From NCBI GenBank assembly GCA_036387135.1, contig DASVUH010000007.1, positions 2,105 through 66,104 on the forward strand: a DNA stretch of 64,000 bases, written 5' to 3'. This document shows positions 1,561 to 28,968 of the stretch, piece after piece. How positions within the stretch are numbered: the stretch's first letter is position 1; each line of letters starts with the position of its first letter. Under the pieces are notes generated by a model. The model did not search any database and was not told the origin of the DNA. It worked only from the letters and a program-made list of their open reading frames with translations. Source of the DNA: Pyrinomonadaceae bacterium (GTDB lineage Bacteria > Acidobacteriota > Blastocatellia > Pyrinomonadales > Pyrinomonadaceae). The position numbers and the translations under genes were made by a program.

Positions 1561-2538
1561 TTATTGAATTGTCATTTTCGACGCATCGAGAATGTAGCCT
1601 CCGTATATTTGTTTTCTAAGTTGTTCGGAAAGCTCGGCATCCAGTTTCTTGAGAATACTAAAATGCTTTAGAGCTTCATCGCGGTTATTCATCGCCAGAA
1701 AACTGACGGCAAGATTATATTGCGCGTAACTCCAATCTGGACGGAGTCTGGCTGACTCTAAATAACTTTTGTGCGCCTGCTTTTTCTTGCCTAACTTGGT
1801 TAGCACGACTCCGAGATTGCTGTGAGCATCGGCAAATGCAGGCTTCAGTTCAATGGCGCGCCTCAAGCTCTCATTAGCTTCCTGATAGCGCCCGACCGCG
1901 ATCAGTGTAACTCCCTTATCGTTAAGAATCTCAGCCGAATCGGGCTGCAGCTTAATCGCAGCATTGAATGCTTCAAGCGATTGCTCGTAATTTTTGATTT
2001 GGTACAGCGACATTCCTAATTGTCTGAGCACGGAAGGATTGTGCGGCTCAAACTGCGCGGAGCGGCGAAAAGCCGCGACGCTTTCTTCGTAACGACCAGC
2101 CTCGTAAAGCGTGTTGCCTAGTCCGGCGTAAGCATTAGCAGAATCAGGCTTATTTTCGATTATATGGTTGAATTCCTGCACGGCGTCATCATAACGACCT
2201 GCGTAATTAAGAGCCATTGCCAGGTTGAAATTAATCTGAGCCGATTTTGGAGCTATTGAGACAGCTTTTTGGAACATCTCGATGGCTTCGCTGTAATGTT
2301 TTTCGAGAGCTAATTCGACGCCCCGGTTATTAAAGTCAAGGGCTTTAACCCCGCCGATTGACGAAGCGCCTCCGGTTTCGGGAGGAAGCCAGTTAAATTG
2401 GTTTTCCGAATTGATATTCGGATTTCGCTTATTTTCTTCATACGAGTGAAGGGACGAAGGATTTCGCTTGTTTTCTTCTTGCGCGTAAGCGGTTGAAACG
2501 AGTGTGACGATAAATAGAACGAGCAGGATTGTTTTCAT
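1561..2538 (-). CDS. Secreted tetratricopeptide (TPR) repeat protein
   Basis: Signal peptide MKTILLVLFIVTLVSTAYAQ. Multiple TPR-like 34-aa units are present (AxxYxxLGxxY..G.Y..A pattern). Confidence 0.7.
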   Translation of the reverse strand: MKTILLVLFIVTLVSTAYAQEENKRNPSSLHSYEENKRNPNINSENQFNWLPPETGGASSIGGVKALDFNNRGVELALEKHYSEAIEMFQKAVSIAPKSAQINFNLAMALNYAGRYDDAVQEFNHIIENKPDSANAYAGLGNTLYEAGRYEESVAAFRRSAQFEPHNPSVLRQLGMSLYQIKNYEQSLEAFNAAIKLQPDSAEILNDKGVTLIAVGRYQEANESLRRAIELKPAFADAHSNLGVVLTKLGKKKQAHKSYLESARLRPDWSYAQYNLAVSFLAMNNRDEALKHFSILKKLDAELSEQLRKQIYGGYILDASKMTIQ

Positions 2539-2820
2539 GATTTTTTCCTTATTGCAGCAGTAGCTAACATTCTCGTTTGCTATAAAAGCCTTTTACATTA
2601 AAGACTAAAACTAGATTGTGACGAGTCGTTTCAAACCGGCTATGAAAGCATTCTTTTAGGATTGAGCGGTAGGCAAATGCGGGTTGAAAATGAAAGTTGA
2701 AAAGGGCTATTACGAAGCGGCGGGAACGATAATCGCTAAAAGACTGATCGGGTAGTTTTCCGATTTTTAAAATTTAGCTTTTAAAGCCGGAATGAAATTG
2801 ATAAAAAGGAGATTAAATTT

Positions 2821-3222
2821 ATGCGTTTTATAAAACTGCTTCTTTTTATTTTTATCTGCATCGTTTCGATTGCCGCTGCAAATGCGCAGACGGCAAAATG
2901 TCTAAGTTACGAACCGGAAAAAGTCAGCCTGCGCGGTCAGCTTTTGCGAAAAAGCGTCGTTAACGCCTCGAATCAAAAGGAAACAATCTGGACGCTCAAG
3001 CTGGATGCGCCGATTTGCGTCAAAGCCGATGCGGGAAACGAATTTAACATCGCGGTCAAGCGTCTGACCGATGTTCAGCTCGTTCTTTCAACCGAACAGT
3101 TCAAAAAATATCGCGCGAATTTAAACAGGAAAATCGAAGCCGGCGGCACGCTTTTCGGGGCGCATACGCAGCATCATTTTACGAATGTTTTAATGATTGT
3201 CGAAGAAATTAAAGCGAGATGA
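2821..3222 (+). CDS. Hypothetical small secreted protein
   Basis: RBS aaaggag 8 nt upstream of ATG. N-terminal signal peptide. 4-nt ATGA overlap with the next ORF suggests translational coupling. Confidence 0.5.
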   Translation: MRFIKLLLFIFICIVSIAAANAQTAKCLSYEPEKVSLRGQLLRKSVVNASNQKETIWTLKLDAPICVKADAGNEFNIAVKRLTDVQLVLSTEQFKKYRANLNRKIEAGGTLFGAHTQHHFTNVLMIVEEIKAR

Positions 3223-3725
3223 CTATGACGAGATTTCTTTTGGCGTTTATAACTTTGTGTCTATTTTCCGTTTTCGCAAACGCTCAACGCGAAACCGATG
3301 TTTCCGCGATTCGCAGCGATGTTCAGAGCATCAACAAAAACTCGGCGAAGCTCAAACAAGCGACTGTTAAATTAGACGGAATTTCAACCGAAGGAGCCGA
3401 GCTGACGGTTTTTCGGGAAAATAATCAAATCAAAAAAATCAACGCCCAAATCTACGGCGAAATGGGTTATTCGATAATCGAGCTTTTCTACAAAGACGAA
3501 AAGCCGATTTTCATTTACGAGCGCGAATTTCGTTATGAAAAGCCGTTCGGGAAAGTCCTGAAAATCATCCCGACGCGGTTTTATTTCGCCAATGAAAAGC
3601 TCGTCAAAATGCTTTACGCGAAAAGAGAGATTTTTGCTGAAGACAAAGAGTACAACGAAATGCGCGACCGAATGATTTCGCTCTCGAAAACAATTTTCGA
3701 CGCGGCGAAAGATAAATCGAAATAA
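3219..3725 (+). CDS. Hypothetical small secreted protein
   Basis: Signal peptide MTMTRFLLAFITLCLFSVFANAQ. Start overlaps the upstream stop. Confidence 0.5.
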   Translation: MTMTRFLLAFITLCLFSVFANAQRETDVSAIRSDVQSINKNSAKLKQATVKLDGISTEGAELTVFRENNQIKKINAQIYGEMGYSIIELFYKDEKPIFIYEREFRYEKPFGKVLKIIPTRFYFANEKLVKMLYAKREIFAEDKEYNEMRDRMISLSKTIFDAAKDKSK

Positions 3726-3748
3726 ATTAAACGCCGCTCAAAACCTTA

Positions 3749-5188
3749 TCAGGATTCTTTTTTGATTAAATTTAAAGCGGTTTCCAAAATCGCGTCTCTG
3801 CCGCTCACATAATCGGCAACTCGTCTCGTTACCGGCAAATCCGGCACGACTCCTCTGGCGTCTTTACAACCGGCGGGCGGCATCCAGTTTCTGACGGAAA
3901 GAGATGCCCGCAGTCTGGAATGCGGCAGATTAAAAAAGTAAATTTCGCCGAAATTGCAGACAGGCGCTTTGGTTTCTTCGCCGACAATCTTTGCAAGCCC
4001 GTTATCTTTTATCACTGCCAAAAACATTTGAGCGCTGGAAAATGTTTCCTTTGAACCGAGAACAAACACCTTCCCGTCGAATCGAAGCGGATTATCGCCG
4101 GGATTGACTGTCGGCGGCTGAGTCGAAATAAATTCGCCCGGACGCAGCGCCATATAATTATCCGGCACGGGTAAATTTTTGCTCTTGAGAAATTCGACAT
4201 ACTGATTGCTGCGTTTCCACTTCATCGAATAATGTTTGTACGGCTTTGCGTTGAACATATTAATCAGCGCGTCTCCGAGCGCCGAATTGCCGCCCCGGTT
4301 ATTTCTGACATCAATAATCAAAGTCTTCGCTTCGGCTGATTTAATCTGTGTAAACGCATCCTTCAGAATTGATTTATATTTTTCCAAATCGTAATCAAAA
4401 GTTGTCGAGTTAAGATAAGCCACACCATTTCCGAGCAGCTTCAGTTCAAGCGGAGATTCGTTTGTTTGCGGCGTCGGGGAATTTGCCGCCCTCAAAGCAT
4501 TTTCTCTTTGAATTATTTCCGGCAAATAAATGCCTTTTACCCGGACATTTTTGCCGTCCGAGAAAGAAACCGCAAATTCATCCGGTCGCCCGAAAACTTC
4601 GGCAGCGCCGACCCAGAGCCAGAGCGCGGCGCTTTCGACTCTTTCCCGTTCGATACCGAAAAGATGCTCGCTGAGCTTTTGGATAATCTCGTCGCTCTTA
4701 AAACCGTTTATGCTCGTAATAACGGCTCCCTTTTCAATCTTTTCATCGGCAAACGACTTTTCAACCACAATTTTGCCGTCAACATAAACCGTGCGAATCG
4801 GAAAATATTTCGTCGCATCTTTTTCCGCTTTAATAAAAAAGCGCGGTTCAACCACATAACTATGAGAATCCTGAACGGCGCTGACGAGCGGCGTAAAAAG
4901 CAGCCAGAATTCCTTCTGAGTCATCGCTCCGCGCTCGCGGATGCGAGATTTTATCTGGTTTGCGCGCGCCTGAAACTCTTTGGCTGAAATATGAGCGTAA
5001 GGATTAACGTGCGCCTCTTCCAGATTTTTGATGTAGAAATCCACATCTTCAATTAGCTGTTCGGGGGTAAACCGCTGATTACCATCAAAAACTGTCTGAC
5101 CAAACGCTGAGCAGGTAAATAAAATGATTAAGAATAAAAGGGTCTTGGTTTGGATGACCTGAAAGGTTAATTGTGTCCAAATCCGCAT
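3749..5188 (-). CDS. S41 family peptidase (C-terminal processing / tail-specific protease-like), secreted
   Basis: S41 signature IIDVRNNRGGNS..GDALI and a downstream GSKETFSSAQMF segment. N-terminal signal peptide. Confidence 0.8.
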   Translation of the reverse strand: MRIWTQLTFQVIQTKTLLFLIILFTCSAFGQTVFDGNQRFTPEQLIEDVDFYIKNLEEAHVNPYAHISAKEFQARANQIKSRIRERGAMTQKEFWLLFTPLVSAVQDSHSYVVEPRFFIKAEKDATKYFPIRTVYVDGKIVVEKSFADEKIEKGAVITSINGFKSDEIIQKLSEHLFGIERERVESAALWLWVGAAEVFGRPDEFAVSFSDGKNVRVKGIYLPEIIQRENALRAANSPTPQTNESPLELKLLGNGVAYLNSTTFDYDLEKYKSILKDAFTQIKSAEAKTLIIDVRNNRGGNSALGDALINMFNAKPYKHYSMKWKRSNQYVEFLKSKNLPVPDNYMALRPGEFISTQPPTVNPGDNPLRFDGKVFVLGSKETFSSAQMFLAVIKDNGLAKIVGEETKAPVCNFGEIYFFNLPHSRLRASLSVRNWMPPAGCKDARGVVPDLPVTRRVADYVSGRDAILETALNLIKKES

Positions 5189-14907: not shown

Positions 14908-15900
14908 ATGACAAAGAAAAACATTCTTTCTGGGTTCCTAGCAATTCTGTGCTTCTTGGCGAGCAATGTGCTTGCCAACGCACAAGAAAAAACTTTAGCC
15001 GCTCAAGCTGCGATTGAAGAAGTCGCAGTTTTCCAGAAATACACGAAAACACTCGCCCTGCCAGAGCGTGACCGGCGCGCGGCGTTTTCTTAAAGCGACG
15101 CGCGAGACAAAGCCGCACTCTGGCGTTTGAATCTTGCCTTATCGCTGGTAGACCGCCAAGATTTGACACTACCGCAGCAAATGGTCGTTGCCGACACAAT
15201 CGCCGCGATCACGCCCGAATCATATAGCAATCCAGACCGTGAAAGCGTCCAGAGAAAAGCAAACGCCAAAATCGAGGCAGCCGCCGCATCCGGCTTTACA
15301 AAGCGGCAAATGGGTGAGATATTTGCAACACTCGCCGCGACGCCGACCAGCTTGCGGACGCTAGAGAATTATCTAGACATCACGCAACTTGTCTGCCCGG
15401 ATAATAAAACTCTCTACCGGACTTTGAGTCTCGACGAAAAAAGCGCACTCTGGCGTTTCCAAGCTGCGCTGTTTCTGGCGACAACGGATTCGCTATCTTC
15501 CGAGCAACGTTCGGCGGTTCTCGAATGGCTCAACTTGATTAGTCCAGAATTGCTCGATAGAGCAGTCAGCGACACGGAATTAGCGAGAAAAGGCAACTTA
15601 ATTAAGGCTGCTGCGTCACGACTTGGTGAGGTTTTCACGCCAGAACAAACGGCGAACATCTCGCTTAAGCTCGGTTTGGTTGCTAATCCAAGAGGAGGTA
15701 GCGCGCGGGCGAATCAGAGAGTAAAAATGATCAAGGCATCCGGCAAAGTAGACTTAAGGGAATGCTCCTGTTCAACTAACAGCGATTGGTGTGCTGTGTG
15801 GGTGTCGCAGCAGTATTGCCATAGCGGTAACTGTACTGGGCTGCCGGACGGCTGTGGCAATCTCGGTTTTTATAGTTGCAACGGTAGTTGCAGTTACTGA
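14908..15900 (+). pseudogene. Secreted protein gene interrupted by an in-frame TAA at 15091-15093. N-terminal signal peptide, two internal ~50-aa repeats (..ALWR[LF]..AL.LA..D..) and a C-terminal Cys-rich module (10 Cys in 47 aa).
   Basis: ORFs 14908..15093 and 15127..15900 share one reading frame. Codons immediately after the stop (SDARDKAALWRLNLALSLVD) are homologous to an internal repeat (LDEKSALWRFQAALFLATTD), so the stop lies inside coding sequence. Confidence 0.45.
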
Positions 15901-16637: not shown

Positions 16638-17234
16638 CTAGGATTTTGATTCGGCGAGCGCGTCGCGTACCCGTTTCATATCTTCCCAAACCTCGCGTTT
16701 TTTCGTCGGATCGCGGAGCAAATAAGCCGGATTAAAAGTCGGCATTATTCGAGCAAAACCGCCGTAATCGTGAAACTCGCCGCGCATCTGCGAAATCGTT
16801 TTTTTCGTCTTCAAAAGAGCTTTGGTCGGAGTCGCGCCGAACGAGATAATTATTTTCGGGCGAACAACGGCGAGTTCTCGATGCAGATACGGAATAAAAA
16901 AGTTTAAGATGTCAGGCGTCAACTCGTCTCCGGCGGAAATATATTTGACGGTATTTGTCAGATAACAATCTTCGCGTTTGAGTCCAATCGAATTCAAAAT
17001 TTTAACCAGCATTTCGCCCGCCGGTCCCATAAACGGACGCCCGCTCGCCGCATCCGGCGCGCCCGGCGATTCGCCGACAACCGCCACGCGCAAACCCGCC
17101 GCGCCTTCGCCGAAAATAAACATTCGACTCTGCAATGCCGGAATCGCTTTAGCCTTTTCGAGCAATTCCTGATTCACTTCGTCAAGCGTTTCGGTCGGCT
17201 GCGTTTCTTCATCTGCAAACAAAAAATTTTGCAT
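16638..17234 (-). CDS. Uracil-DNA glycosylase family 4-like paralog lacking the Fe-S cysteine ligands and with Asn replacing the motif-B His
   Basis: Aligns to the neighbouring canonical UDG4 gene: GESPGAPDAASGRPFMGPAGEML versus GEAPGANEDAEGRPFVGRAGQLL, and FNPAYLLRDP versus FHPAYLLRDP. None of the four Cys residues is conserved. Confidence 0.7.
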   Translation of the reverse strand: MQNFLFADEETQPTETLDEVNQELLEKAKAIPALQSRMFIFGEGAAGLRVAVVGESPGAPDAASGRPFMGPAGEMLVKILNSIGLKREDCYLTNTVKYISAGDELTPDILNFFIPYLHRELAVVRPKIIISFGATPTKALLKTKKTISQMRGEFHDYGGFARIMPTFNPAYLLRDPTKKREVWEDMKRVRDALAESKS

Positions 17235-17244
17235 AACAAAAATT

Positions 17245-17344
17245 TGAACCGCTGAGACGCAGAGACGCCGAGTTTAAGAAAAAGAGTTTGAGACAAAAGA
17301 ATAAAAAATCTTTTCCCGGCGTCTCTGCGTCTCGGCGGTGAAAA
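17245..17344. repeat. MITE-like intergenic repeat, copy A. 17-bp terminal inverted repeats gagacgcagagacgccg / cggcgtctctgcgtctc with an A-rich core, ending ctcggcggtgaaaat.
   Basis: Perfect inverted repeats at 17254-17270 and 17318-17334. The 5-prime flank (ttgaaccgcYgagacgca) and 3-prime end (gcgtctcggcggtgaaaat) are shared with copy B at 28744..28866. Confidence 0.75.
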
Positions 17345-18370
17345 TCACTTTTGCGTCCGAGCAAGTTCGTCGCGCACTTTTTTCATATCTTCCCACGTTT
17401 CCCGCTTTTTCGACGGGTCGCGCAAAAGATAAGCCGGGTGAAAAGTCGGCATCACTTTAATGCCGTAATAATCCTGAAATTTACCGCGAATTTTGGTGAT
17501 TCCTTCTTTCGTGTCAAGCAGATTCTGCGTCGCCGTGTTGCCCATTACAACGATGATTTCGGGGCGCGCGATGGAGATTTCGCGCATTAAAAATTGGCGG
17601 CAGGTTCTGGCTTCCTGAATCGTCGGCGTGCGGTTTTGCGGTGGGCGGCACCGGTTGACGTTGCCGATTAAAACTTCCTCGCGTTTTAAACCGATGGCTT
17701 CGATGATTTTGGTCAAAAGCTGTCCGGCGCGCCCGACAAAGGGGCGTCCCTCGGCGTCTTCGTTCGCGCCCGGCGCTTCGCCGACAAAAAGAATGCGCCC
17801 TGTCCAATTGCCTTCCGTGTGGACGATTTTCGTTCTGCCCTGATAAAGCGGGCAGCGCACGCAATCGCCGATGTCGGCGCGGATTTCCTCGACAGTTTCG
17901 TTCGATTCCGGGAGCGTTGCGGATTCCGGCGTCAGATCGCCAAAAAGTGAACCTTCCATTTTTGTTTCCTCTGATTTTTTTGCAAAATTCTGCGGCGGCG
18001 CGACGTTTATTGGCTCTGCAATTTTTTTTAGAATTTCCGGCGCACTTGATTCTTCCTCGCGCGCTGCAACCGACGGCGAGATTTTCGACAATTTTGTCGC
18101 TTCCAATTTATCGCGGAAAGAATTTAAACGAGGCAGCGGCTTTGTTTGGGGCGCAGCAACAGGTTTCGGCGGCGCGGTTTTGTTCACGGGCGGCACATAA
18201 GCCTGAAAAGCGGGCGGCGCGGCTCTTAAAGTCTGAGGCTGTGTTTCTTCCGTTTTTTCCGCGACAAAATCGGTTTCCAATCCTGCAACGCCCAATTCTT
18301 GCGCAAACGCTAAATGCTCGCGCACGTCCGCAAGCAATTCCAAAAAATCTTCGCGCAAACTTTCAGCCAT
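17345..18370 (-). CDS. Uracil-DNA glycosylase family 4 (4Fe-4S type) with a ~170-aa Pro/Ala-rich low-complexity N-terminal extension
   Basis: C-terminal domain carries CVRCPLY, GEAPGANEDAEGRPFVGRAGQLL, NRCRPP..ARTCRQ (four Cys) and FHPAYLLR. Confidence 0.85.
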   Translation of the reverse strand: MAESLREDFLELLADVREHLAFAQELGVAGLETDFVAEKTEETQPQTLRAAPPAFQAYVPPVNKTAPPKPVAAPQTKPLPRLNSFRDKLEATKLSKISPSVAAREEESSAPEILKKIAEPINVAPPQNFAKKSEETKMEGSLFGDLTPESATLPESNETVEEIRADIGDCVRCPLYQGRTKIVHTEGNWTGRILFVGEAPGANEDAEGRPFVGRAGQLLTKIIEAIGLKREEVLIGNVNRCRPPQNRTPTIQEARTCRQFLMREISIARPEIIVVMGNTATQNLLDTKEGITKIRGKFQDYYGIKVMPTFHPAYLLRDPSKKRETWEDMKKVRDELARTQK

Positions 18371-18373
18371 AAA

Positions 18374-19669
18374 CTACTTTTGCTGCCGCAATTTTATCAC
18401 TTCATCGAGTATTTTGTGTGCAGCTTCGTACTTTGAAACGAGCGGCAGAGCCAGCGGTTTTGTTCCGTTTTTCGATAAAATCGTGATTTGATTTGTGTCC
18501 GCGCCAAAACCGGAATCGGAGCGCGAAACATCGTTGGCGACAATTAAATCCAAATTTTTCGCAATCAATTTTTGCCCGGCGTGTTCCAAAACATTTTCGG
18601 TTTCGGCGGCAAATCCGACGACCAGCAAATTCTCGCCGCGCTTTGCCGAAACATCCGCCAAAATGTCCGGCGTTTTTTCGAGTTCAAGAATCAAATCGGC
18701 GTTTTTCTTTTTGATTTTCTCACCTTCGCGTTTTTTCGGACGATAATCGGCAACCGCCGCAGCCGCAATAAAAACCGTAGCATTTTCAATTTCGCTCAAA
18801 ACCGCCCGGTGCATTTCTTCGGCTGAAAAGCCCCGCACGACTTTTACGTTTTCGGGCAATTCGACGCTGACAGTTCCAGCAACCAAAACAACTTCCGCGC
18901 CTCTTTCGCTTGCCGCTTTCGCCAGCGCGACGCCCATTTTTCCGCTTGAATAATTCGAAATGAAACGCACCGGATCAATTTCCTCGCGCGTCGCTCCGGC
19001 GGTTATTAAAATCCTTTCGGATTTAAGGTCTTCGGTCTTCGGTCTTCGGTCTTCGGAAATTTTCTCCTCTTCTCCTCTTCTCCTCTTCTCCTCTTCTAAA
19101 ATTTCCAGAGCGCGACGAACAATCACATCCGGTTCGCTCAAACGACCGGGTCCGACGGTTTTGCAAGCCATTTCGCCCGTGTCGGGTTCGACAAAATGCG
19201 CGCCGTCTCGCCGCAGTTGTTCCAAATTGCGCTGCGTTGCCGGATGCAAGAGCATTTGCGTGTTCATCGCCGGAGCGATTAAAACCGGCGCGGTGGCGGC
19301 GAGATAAGCGGTTGAAAGAAAATCATCGGCAATTCCGTTGGTAAATTTGGCAATGATGTTGGCGGTGGCGGGCGCGATTAAAAGCAAATCAATGTTTTGC
19401 GAAAAATTGATGTGAGCAATCGGGTCTGGATTTTCGGGCGCGTAATCGTCAACCAAAACGTATTTTTCGGTCAGAGCGCGAAAGGTTAAAGGCTGAACGA
19501 ATTCGGTTGCATGGCGCGTCATCGCCACCTGTACTTCGCAGCCGGCTTTTTGCAGCCCGCGCAAAACCTCGACCGCTTTGTAAGCCGCGATTCCGCCCGC
19601 AACTCCCAATCCGACGCGCCATTTTTTATTCTTCTCGTTCATTGCTCGAACCGTTCGCAAATGTAGCAT
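18374..19669 (-). CDS. coaBC: Bifunctional phosphopantothenoylcysteine decarboxylase / phosphopantothenate-cysteine ligase CoaBC (Dfp). The interdomain linker carries repeat insertions.
   Basis: N-terminal flavoprotein motif RVGLGVAGGIAAYKA and a C-terminal CoaB domain (~431 aa total). Linker EEEKRRRGEEEKISEDRRPKTEDLK is encoded by the STR arrays. Confidence 0.9.
   Translation of the reverse strand: MLHLRTVRAMNEKNKKWRVGLGVAGGIAAYKAVEVLRGLQKAGCEVQVAMTRHATEFVQPLTFRALTEKYVLVDDYAPENPDPIAHINFSQNIDLLLIAPATANIIAKFTNGIADDFLSTAYLAATAPVLIAPAMNTQMLLHPATQRNLEQLRRDGAHFVEPDTGEMACKTVGPGRLSEPDVIVRRALEILEEEKRRRGEEEKISEDRRPKTEDLKSERILITAGATREEIDPVRFISNYSSGKMGVALAKAASERGAEVVLVAGTVSVELPENVKVVRGFSAEEMHRAVLSEIENATVFIAAAAVADYRPKKREGEKIKKKNADLILELEKTPDILADVSAKRGENLLVVGFAAETENVLEHAGQKLIAKNLDLIVANDVSRSDSGFGADTNQITILSKNGTKPLALPLVSKYEAAHKILDEVIKLRQQK
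19027..19056. repeat. (GGTCTTC)n heptanucleotide tandem repeat, ~4.3 copies, in-frame in the coaBC linker
   Basis: Read directly from the sequence. Confidence 0.9.
19063..19097. repeat. (CTCCTCTT)n-type CT-rich tandem repeat, ~4 copies, adjacent to the GGTCTTC array inside coaBC
   Basis: Read directly. A similar CT-rich tract recurs in the exosortase gene at 58922..58957. Confidence 0.85.
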
Positions 19670-28709: not shown

Positions 28710-28743
28710 TTTATTTTTAACTTGAATTCAAAGTAATGAAAGT

Positions 28744-28866
28744 TGAACCGCCGAGACGCAAAGACGCAGAGAAAATTAAAGAAAAAAATGAGAAGAATTC
28801 GAGTGAAAAGAAGAAACCTCTCTTCTTTTCCTAAAAATCTCGGCGTCTCGGCGGTGAAAATTTTCT
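28744..28866. repeat. MITE-like intergenic repeat, copy B. Inverted termini ccgccgagacgc / gcgtctcggcgg with an A-rich core, ending ctcggcggtgaaaat.
   Basis: Shares its 5-prime flank and 3-prime end with copy A (17245..17344). Sits in the divergent promoter region between the ABC ATPase and the asparaginase-like gene. Confidence 0.75.
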
Positions 28867-28968
28867 TACCTCAAATTCACCTAATTTTTACGCTCCTCAG
28901 CCCACGAAGTTCGGTTTGATTCTGTTATAATTTGCCGTACATTTCCGAAGGATCTCAACAAGGTATTT

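Follow-up and report, generated by a model that had tools for sequence, protein, structure and literature searches.

Why does a soil acidobacterium keep, side by side, a canonical iron-sulfur uracil-DNA glycosylase (UDG) and a strongly conserved paralog that has no [4Fe-4S] cluster and carries an altered active site? This question is raised by a gene pair in a stretch of 64,000 nucleotides from the contig DASVUH010000007.1 of a Pyrinomonadaceae bacterium; this whole stretch is called the window below. The gene of the short paralog is an open reading frame (ORF) of 198 amino acids (aa) at positions 16638-17234 of the minus strand. The gene of the long paralog, which encodes a canonical family-4 UDG of 341 aa with four cysteine ligands, the motif GEAPG, E204/D205, N246, and H311, is located at 17345-18370 on the same strand. 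In our reading, to which we assign a probability of about 50%, the short gene encodes a functional protein of an uncharacterised branch of family 4 that is specific to the Blastocatellia and is here called "Asn-type", with altered catalysis or specificity.

Both proteins matched PF03167, and both passed the family-4 model TIGR00758 ("UDG family 4", cutoff 125.3 bits), the long protein with 212.3 bits and the short protein marginally with 132.9 bits. The initial annotation of the locus, which had been made from the sequence alone, was thus right in describing a tandem pair of family-4 UDG genes. Residues 1-197 of the short protein could be aligned with residues 138-340 of the long protein at 45% identity (BLASTP, E=3e-51). 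In a comparison with the Thermus UDGa 1ui0, the long protein matched with E=1e-52, and all four cluster cysteines (CxxC, KC(R)PP, and a downstream Cys) were aligned. The short protein matched over an equal span with E=6e-27, and none of the cluster cysteines was present; the ligand positions are occupied by R/K, a gap, Y/M/I/V, and F, as expected from the earlier statement that all four had been lost. The exchange of FHPAYLLR for FNPAYLLR was also recovered, and the Asn codon AAT is found at 16731-16733.

The short protein is widely conserved in its own lineage. Its closest 120 database homologs were 69-98% identical and came from Pyrinomonadaceae (Acidobacteriota). FNPAYLL was present in 120/120 of them, and a lone Cys that is not a ligand in 114/120. 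A scan of species-representative genomes yielded 172 loci, and the best 80 of these were used for further analyses. All 80 belong to the Pyrinomonadaceae/Pyrinomonadales, the cultured type strain Pyrinomonas methylaliphatogenes K22 included, and the short ORF was intact at every one of them. The median ratio of nonsynonymous to synonymous substitution rates (dN/dS) was 0.16 for the short gene, and the part of the long gene that encodes the catalytic domain gave 0.135 (1608 ortholog pairs). The residues that are invariant in the short clade include E55, F68, N94, N168, and R174. An AlphaFold2 (AF2) model of the short protein had a predicted local distance difference test (pLDDT) value of 91 and a predicted template modelling score (pTM) of 0.87, and its best Foldseek matches were the family-4 UDGs 1l9g, 1ui1, and 4zby, with template modelling (TM) scores of 0.78-0.86. 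In a HMMER scan of 1.84 billion cluster representatives, the short type was found as one complete representative (P0121) and a few fragments, and every match under about 160 bits was a Cys-bearing family-4 protein.

The gene structure, conservation, purifying selection, synteny, fold, and substitution pattern are established. In favour of an artefact or a decaying duplicate, one can cite the loss of hallmark residues and nothing further. Sequencing or assembly error, a pseudogene, and a decaying duplicate are ruled out by 188 distinct orthologs from independent assemblies, among them that of the cultured type strain, by the intact ORFs at 80/80 loci, by the dN/dS value of 0.16, and by the confident fold prediction, so that this view retains practically no probability. 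The initial annotation had itself considered that sequence errors might mask Cys codons; this is excluded, because the Asn was found in 188/188 distinct sequences from many assemblies. The purifying selection and the retention of E41, F54, N80, and R161 (active-site positions from E41 to R161 are given in Thermus UDGa numbering, with their roles mapped by alignment) argue against a dead protein, and rather than being a dead duplicate, the short protein probably acts as a repair enzyme whose chemistry or target is altered.

The active sites of the short clade, the long orthologs, and a canonical reference set of 139 diverse family-4 representatives were then compared position by position. H155, which stabilises the leaving group, is replaced by Asn in 188/188 short sequences, while His is found in 189/189 long orthologs and in 137/139 canonical representatives. 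E47, which blocks thymine, is Asp in all 188 short sequences and Glu in 189/189 long and 135/139 canonical ones. At position 48, the Asp of 189/189 long and 137/139 canonical sequences is exchanged for Ile, Ala, or Val, and the residue is thus hydrophobic in the entire short clade (188/188). Position 42 (motif A, GESPG) is Ser in 188/188 short sequences compared with 2/139 canonical representatives; it is usually Ala or Gly in long and canonical proteins, and the long orthologs have Ala in 189/189. For motif 3, the counts were taken from the alignment. The water-positioning N89 is replaced by Asp in 23 and by Glu in 4 of 28 short sequences, and Asn was found in 27/27 long and 130/139 canonical sequences. 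R85 is Ile in the short clade and Arg in 134/139 canonical representatives, and R90 is Glu in the short clade and Arg in long and canonical proteins. The binding residues E41, F54, N80, and R161 are kept in all of these groups.

In the window, these exchanges are found in three segments of the short gene, all on the minus strand. Motif A and the pocket helix, GESPGAPDA (aa 54-62), are encoded at 17049-17075; E55 is kept, and positions 42, 47, and 48 correspond to Ser, D61, and A62, respectively. The rebuilt motif-3/cluster loop KYISAGDELTP (aa 97-107), encoded at 16914-16946, stands in place of KCRPPxNRxP, and HMMER and MAFFT agreed on this alignment. In this loop, Y98 corresponds to Cys ligand 3, I99 to R85, D103 to N89, and E104 to R90. 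Motif B, FNPAYLLR (aa 167-174), is encoded at 16713-16736; N168 corresponds to H155, and the intercalating Arg is kept as R174.

Several of the exchanged positions have been characterised experimentally. In Thermus UDGa, the mutation H155S decreased k2/Km about 10^4-fold, with k2 reduced more than 10^3-fold and Km unchanged; E47A led to an about 100-fold lower k2/Km, and E47 was found to block thymine; and N89A resulted in an about 6-fold lower k2, N89 being the residue that positions the water (PMC5387724). In DR0022, an Ala at the site equivalent to E47 allows the excision of 5-hydroxymethyluracil (hmU), and the mutation A50E abolishes it (PMC9796141). Because the substitutions of the short clade co-occur at such experimentally characterised positions, the exchange of His for Asn is, as far as the aligned sequences tell, one element of a coupled remodelling that involves the gate for specificity and the sites of the water and the leaving group. 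The initial annotation had correctly recognised the His-to-Asn change, but had missed that it belongs to a correlated set of several residues. Two rare family-4 variants, P0152 and P0244, have Ser in place of the motif-B His. One of them, P0152, combines E47D, R85L, N89E, and H155S and is not close to the short and the Asn-type clades; it may represent an independent occurrence of the coupled switch.

A second group with the FNPAYLL motif was found in the order Blastocatellales of the class Blastocatellia (P0162, P0257, and relatives, about 222 aa), and its proteins are annotated in the databases only as uracil-DNA glycosylase or DNA polymerase. Among 120 examined members of this Blastocatellales Asn-type group, GEGPG was present in 120, motif-B Asn in 118, and Asp at position 47 in 120. 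Position 42 is accordingly Gly, position 48 is mostly hydrophobic, position 85 is Ile or Val, and position 89 is Glu in 16/17, whereas R90 has remained Arg; the binding residues E41, F54, N80, and R161 are kept. The group thus shares with the short clade D47, a hydrophobic residue at 48, I/V85, an acidic residue at 89, N155, C76, K145, and an N-terminal LF(G) motif, and both come from the same bacterial class. It differs from the short clade in that most members have kept the cluster ligands (CxxC, KC, and the fourth Cys, in the order CxxC...C...C), and in having GEGPG and PPGER instead of GESPG and SxGDE. Furthermore, the Blastocatellales gene was solitary at the loci that were checked (L081-L083), whereas the short gene stands in tandem with a UDG gene.

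Neighbour-joining (NJ), performed with a numpy routine and 200 bootstraps, was the only method used for the phylogeny. The short clade was monophyletic in every bootstrap. Its sister was the Blastocatellales Asn-type group in 186/200 bootstraps, and in 167/200 when the column with the Asn was omitted, while short and long proteins were grouped together in 0/200. A simple recent tandem duplication of the neighbouring gene is therefore not supported by NJ, and the short gene may have another origin. The sister clade has the substitution set plus the cluster cysteines, and therefore cluster loss and the His-to-Asn exchange appear as separable events, and the active-site change probably preceded the loss of the cluster.

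Family 4 is known as a group of cluster-containing enzymes, in which the cluster has a structural role and stabilises a loop, and Cys mutants are partly active (PMC5295032). The ligand cysteines were present in 27/27 long paralogs, and at all four positions the short clade has another residue or a gap. Of the 139 diverse representatives, 8 (P0175, P0177, P0195, P0218, P0227, P0228, P0245, and P0262) likewise lack three or four of these cysteines and thus have no more than one ligand Cys, and nonetheless they keep E47, N89, and H155; P0245, with its canonical active site, stems from the Alphaproteobacteria. Across the aligned family, the cluster has thus been lost repeatedly, and this loss can be separated from the Asn-type switch. 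The initial annotation had called the combination of a missing cluster with the Asn unusual, and this rarity was corroborated by the reference set described above. A literature search revealed no paper on cluster-free or Asn-type family-4 enzymes, and no established, characterised clade with equal substitutions was found.

The comparison with known families further delimits the short paralog. With family-4 UDGs (Thermus thermophilus TTHA0718, 1ui0; Thermotoga maritima TM0511, 1l9g; Sulfolobus tokodaii, 4zbx) it shares a common fold, with a TM score of about 0.8 and about 32% identity, as well as GE.PG, the stacking Phe of GRPF, the base-reading Asn of TN, and.P[AS]YLLR with the intercalating Arg. 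In contrast, the four [4Fe-4S] cysteines are gone, and E47 is changed to Asp, N89 to Asp, and H155 to Asn. The long paralog is a full member of family 4, whereas, judged by alignment, three of the features that define the family are missing from the short paralog, i.e. the cluster, the motif-B His, and the motif-3 Asn. Family-2 MUG of E. coli (1mug) resembles the short paralog in having an Asn in motif B (VLPNPSG, taken from the 1mug sequence) and no Fe-S cluster. However, its motif A, in which the catalytic residue is an Asn, reads GINPG instead of GE.PG, the TM score is only about 0.62-0.73, and the identity is about 21%; the likeness is restricted to the level of the fold, and a sequence-level match was not obtained. 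E. coli MUG is a slow, product-inhibited enzyme that acts on mismatched uracil and on xanthine, and it is known as an enzyme of the UDG fold that is active in spite of lacking the motif-B His.

UdgX of Mycobacterium smegmatis (6ail) is, like the short paralog, a derivative of family 4 with GPAG after the Phe. Its outcome is changed to a covalent complex with apurinic/apyrimidinic (AP) DNA, and small changes of the active site can thus yield a new function on this scaffold. Unlike the short paralog, it has kept the Fe-S cluster and the motif-B His, and it has GEQPG and an inserted KRRIH loop. Membership of the short paralog in UdgX was rejected: the TIGR03914 score was 113.8, compared with a cutoff of 189.95, motif A is GESPG, and there is no R-loop insertion, as KYISAGDELTP has the length of the canonical loop. 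Family 5 (UDGb) was rejected as well, because phmmer gave no match of the short protein to 2d3y at E<=0.001, the TM score was 0.61 with a root-mean-square deviation of 7.7, and motif A contains Glu and is not GLAPG. The DR0022-like acid UDG of Deinococcus radiodurans, another offshoot resembling family 4, has Ala at the site of E47, by which 5-hydroxymethyluracil is admitted, and it provides an experimental precedent that this position gates C5 substituents. It differs from the short paralog in that the motif-2 His and the motif-3 Asn are kept and motif 1 is LEAP, and its identity to family 4 amounts to only about 20%. For the repeated loss of [4Fe-4S] clusters in DNA glycosylases, a precedent is the clusterless MutY (MutYX), which has an unrelated fold and belongs to the helix-hairpin-helix superfamily.

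Both paralogs contain a conserved motif that ends in LF. In the short protein, QNFLF (aa 2-6, 17217-17231, minus strand) is a Q-x-x-L-F motif that resembles the motif for binding to the beta sliding clamp. The pattern xxxLF was present within the first 14 aa of 182/188 distinct short-clade proteins, 158 of which have Q[SND][SFL]LF at residues 2-6; KLSLF and EFSLF are among the variants. A random 14-mer of equal composition would contain Q..LF with a probability of 0.0017. Residues 1-10 have pLDDT values below 50 and are the sole low-confidence part of the short model. The bacterial clamp-binding consensus is QL(D/S)LF and usually occurs in flexible termini (PMC6511837). From the motif and the predicted disorder, the N-terminal peptide probably tethers the short protein to the beta clamp. 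A literature search found no paper that ties a bacterial UDG to a clamp-binding motif; archaeal family-4 UDGs and PCNA have been discussed together in the literature.

The long orthologs comprise 313-351 aa, and all of them have an N-terminal extension. The AF2 model of the long paralog consists of a helix at aa 2-25 (18296-18367, minus strand, pLDDT about 74-85), a low-confidence region at aa 36-147 that is presumably disordered, and the catalytic domain at aa 150-341. A conserved element, ...E...Y..ELGV, follows just past the helix in an alignment of 70 orthologs. The linker at aa 36-137 (17960-18265, minus strand) has pLDDT values mostly below 50-58, is poorly conserved, and is composed of 16% Pro, 15% Ala, 12% Lys, and 11% Glu. 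Together with the aligned cluster cysteines, its composition and predicted disorder fit the earlier description of the long gene as an Fe-S family-4 UDG with a Pro-rich N-terminal extension. Behind about 110 aa of predicted disorder, MEGSLF (aa 138-143, 17942-17959, minus strand) represents a motif that reads Q[ED]TLFG in its conserved form and is located some 30 residues ahead of CxxC. The pattern xxx[ST]LF was found in 69/70 long orthologs, with Q in 38, and is aligned with the N-terminus of the short paralog. Among 121 other N-extended family-4 representatives, 22 have QxSLF about 30 residues ahead of CxxC. Pfam gave no match of the long paralog beyond the UDG domain. N-termini like the long-paralog helix were seen by eye in the N-extended family-4 UDGs P0125, P0129, and P0244, which stem from other lineages, and a regular expression for the motif of this helix matched 5/107 proteins from other phyla and was uninformative.

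Taken as a functional enzyme of the Asn-type, the short protein might have originated and might act as follows. The Pyrinomonadaceae lineage would have possessed the Asn-type set, would then have lost the [4Fe-4S] cluster, and would have rebuilt the loop that had been anchored by the cluster as KxISxGDE. A uracil-like pyrimidine would still be flipped out and bound via the kept residues E41, F54, N80, and R161. During cleavage, the leaving group would be activated more weakly, with a hydrogen bond from Asn replacing the His, as in MUG, and the carboxylate at the water site could serve as a general base. The shortening of E47 to Asp would make the pocket wider at C5. One would expect a slower, MUG-like turnover, a shift of the substrates to e.g. 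5-substituted or otherwise activated pyrimidines, or both, and the short protein would in this way complement the fast, uracil-only canonical paralog. The initial annotation had likewise considered an altered specificity or a slow turnover. The disordered N-terminal Q-x-x-L-F peptide would tether it to the beta sliding clamp.

Several points weigh against this reading. We infer the activity and the substrate of the Asn-type members from their sequences. The exchange of the motif-B His for Ser costs Thermus UDGa a factor of about 10^4 (PMC5387724), and by analogy an Asn at this position may give a very poor enzyme. The putative assignment of D103 and E104 to the water site follows from their alignment with N89 and R90. 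The link between the short clade and the Blastocatellales group was obtained with NJ only, both groups have long branches, and many of the shared states are located in the active site and could be convergent. In addition, the short clade shares four derived residues with the long paralogs (T106, E120, N134, and D175), and its mean distance to the long paralogs (0.95) is smaller than that to the Asn-type group (1.06), so that a recent tandem duplication may still account for the short gene. Finally, the Q-x-x-L-F motif is short and is present in the long paralogs, too, and it could serve another partner or a structural role.

Two other explanations and a stronger version of the proposed one were weighed against these data. 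As already considered in the initial annotation, the short paralog could be a damage-binding protein, either non-catalytic or limited to a single turnover. It would recognise uracil or an AP site and stay bound to it, e.g. to protect AP sites or to flag them for the neighbouring canonical UDG or for later repair steps at the replication fork. The unchanged Km of the H155S variant of Thermus UDGa, in spite of the more than 10^3-fold decrease of k2, indicates that binding can outlast catalysis (PMC5387724). The residues that contact the base and the DNA are all kept (E55, F68, N94, and R174), UdgX is a precedent of the same fold for a family-4 derivative that binds uracil-DNA and cross-links to it, and a clamp-tethering motif would suit a sensor. 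However, the exchange for Asn is specific in 188/188 sequences and is accompanied by a carboxylate in place of the water-site Asn, a pattern that looks selected for an altered chemistry and not relaxed; the dN/dS value is as low as that of the active paralog; and the UdgX-type KRRIH loop is missing, and the TIGR03914 score of 113.8 is far below 189.95. We regard this explanation as rather unlikely.

Alternatively, the short protein could be an ordinary, redundant UDG that serves as a cluster-free, iron- and oxidation-independent backup, and its changes would be neutral or compensatory drift. It passes the family-4 model TIGR00758, the cluster is structural and dispensable for the chemistry (PMC5295032), cluster-free proteins with a canonical active site exist in other phyla (8/139, e.g. 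P0245), and a backup would account for the tandem layout as well as for the strong selection. Yet these other cluster-free lineages keep E47, N89, and H155, showing that cluster loss needs no changes of the active site, and the Asn-type set coexists with an intact cluster in the Blastocatellales. Moreover, the changed positions are those that were experimentally found to control specificity and rate (PMC5387724), and we consider a mere backup quite unlikely. The stronger version extends the functional Asn-type reading: within the UDG superfamily, the cluster-bearing and cluster-free Asn-type proteins together would make up a separate, new functional class. In the catalysis at the leaving group, His would have given way to a MUG-like Asn and a motif-3 carboxylate as general base, and the thymine gate would have been opened by E47D. 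The target would be a lesion other than plain uracil, e.g. mismatched thymine or 5-substituted or oxidised pyrimidines, and the clamp peptide would deliver the enzyme to the replisome, which would make it a bacterial counterpart of the PCNA-bound archaeal family-4 UDGs. This proposal is tentative, and we hold it to be somewhat unlikely in its entirety.

UDG classes have repeatedly been set by small motif changes with new chemistry, as exemplified by the cross-linking of UdgX, the hmU activity of the acid UDG DR0022, and the xanthine activity of MUG. The Asn-type proteins represent a natural experiment, in which the residues for specificity, water, and leaving group were changed together and have been strongly selected in hundreds of genomes. 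The existence of two natural versions, with and without [4Fe-4S], offers a way to ask how a UDG works without the motif-B His, and the contribution of the cluster can be addressed by comparing cluster-bearing relatives, cluster-free relatives, and the canonical neighbouring paralog. In addition, the conserved Q-x-x-L-F suggests a link between a bacterial UDG and the sliding clamp. If the short protein is an ordinary uracil glycosylase, it would be a lineage-specific paralog of modest interest.

The gene pair belongs to a conserved cluster. Its first gene, at 18374-19669 on the minus strand, encodes a CoaBC-like protein of 431 aa, which was named by reading the translation. The stop codon of this gene lies 3 nucleotides (nt) ahead of the start of the long UDG gene, and the adjacency is conserved across the Pyrinomonadaceae; according to tblastn, a CoaBC-like gene is located directly upstream of the long UDG gene in most of the 80 loci. 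In E. coli, coaBC (dfp) presumably adjoins dut, which also serves to exclude uracil from DNA. The long UDG gene was found immediately upstream of the short gene and on the same strand at 77/80 loci, that of P. methylaliphatogenes K22 included, and the remaining three had no upstream flank. The intergenic gap between long and short genes had a median of about 90 nt and a range from -1 to 2475 nt. In L003, a relative with 94% identity, the pair is split by a gene for a repeat-rich, secreted-looking protein of 677 aa (L003 positions 1815-3848). The idea of an obligate operon is weakened by this gene and by the gaps of up to 2.5 kb; co-transcription of the UDG pair is usual, but not obligatory.

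A palindromic repeat is present between the two UDG genes at 17242-17345, with arms of 29 nt (17242-17270 and 17317-17345) and a spacer of 46 nt. Its predicted RNA fold has an energy of -55 kcal/mol (z=-8.6). A second copy at 28723-28879 of the window has equal terminal sequences (TTGAACCGCCGAGACGC...GCGTCTCGGCGGTGAAAAT), with arms of 42 nt that are 76% complementary and a spacer of 73 nt. The palindrome at the UDG site is shared by the closest relatives only (L001, L002, and L004) and was absent from L005. The initial annotation had placed an element resembling a miniature inverted-repeat transposable element (MITE) between the genes. An inverted repeat is indeed located there, but its MITE-like nature is weakly supported by one further related copy in 64 kb, and the assignment as a MITE was dropped in view of these two related copies and of the restriction of the element at the UDG site to the closest relatives. 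A canonical terminator was also rejected, as the loop of the palindrome comprises 46 nt. The palindrome is a small repeated element that is peripheral to the UDG pair. Elsewhere in the window, an ORF of 257 aa at 15127-15900 on the plus strand encodes a protein with a very Cys-rich C-terminal tail (...CSCSTNSDWCAVWVSQQYCHSGNCTGLPDGCGNLGFYSCNGSCSY).

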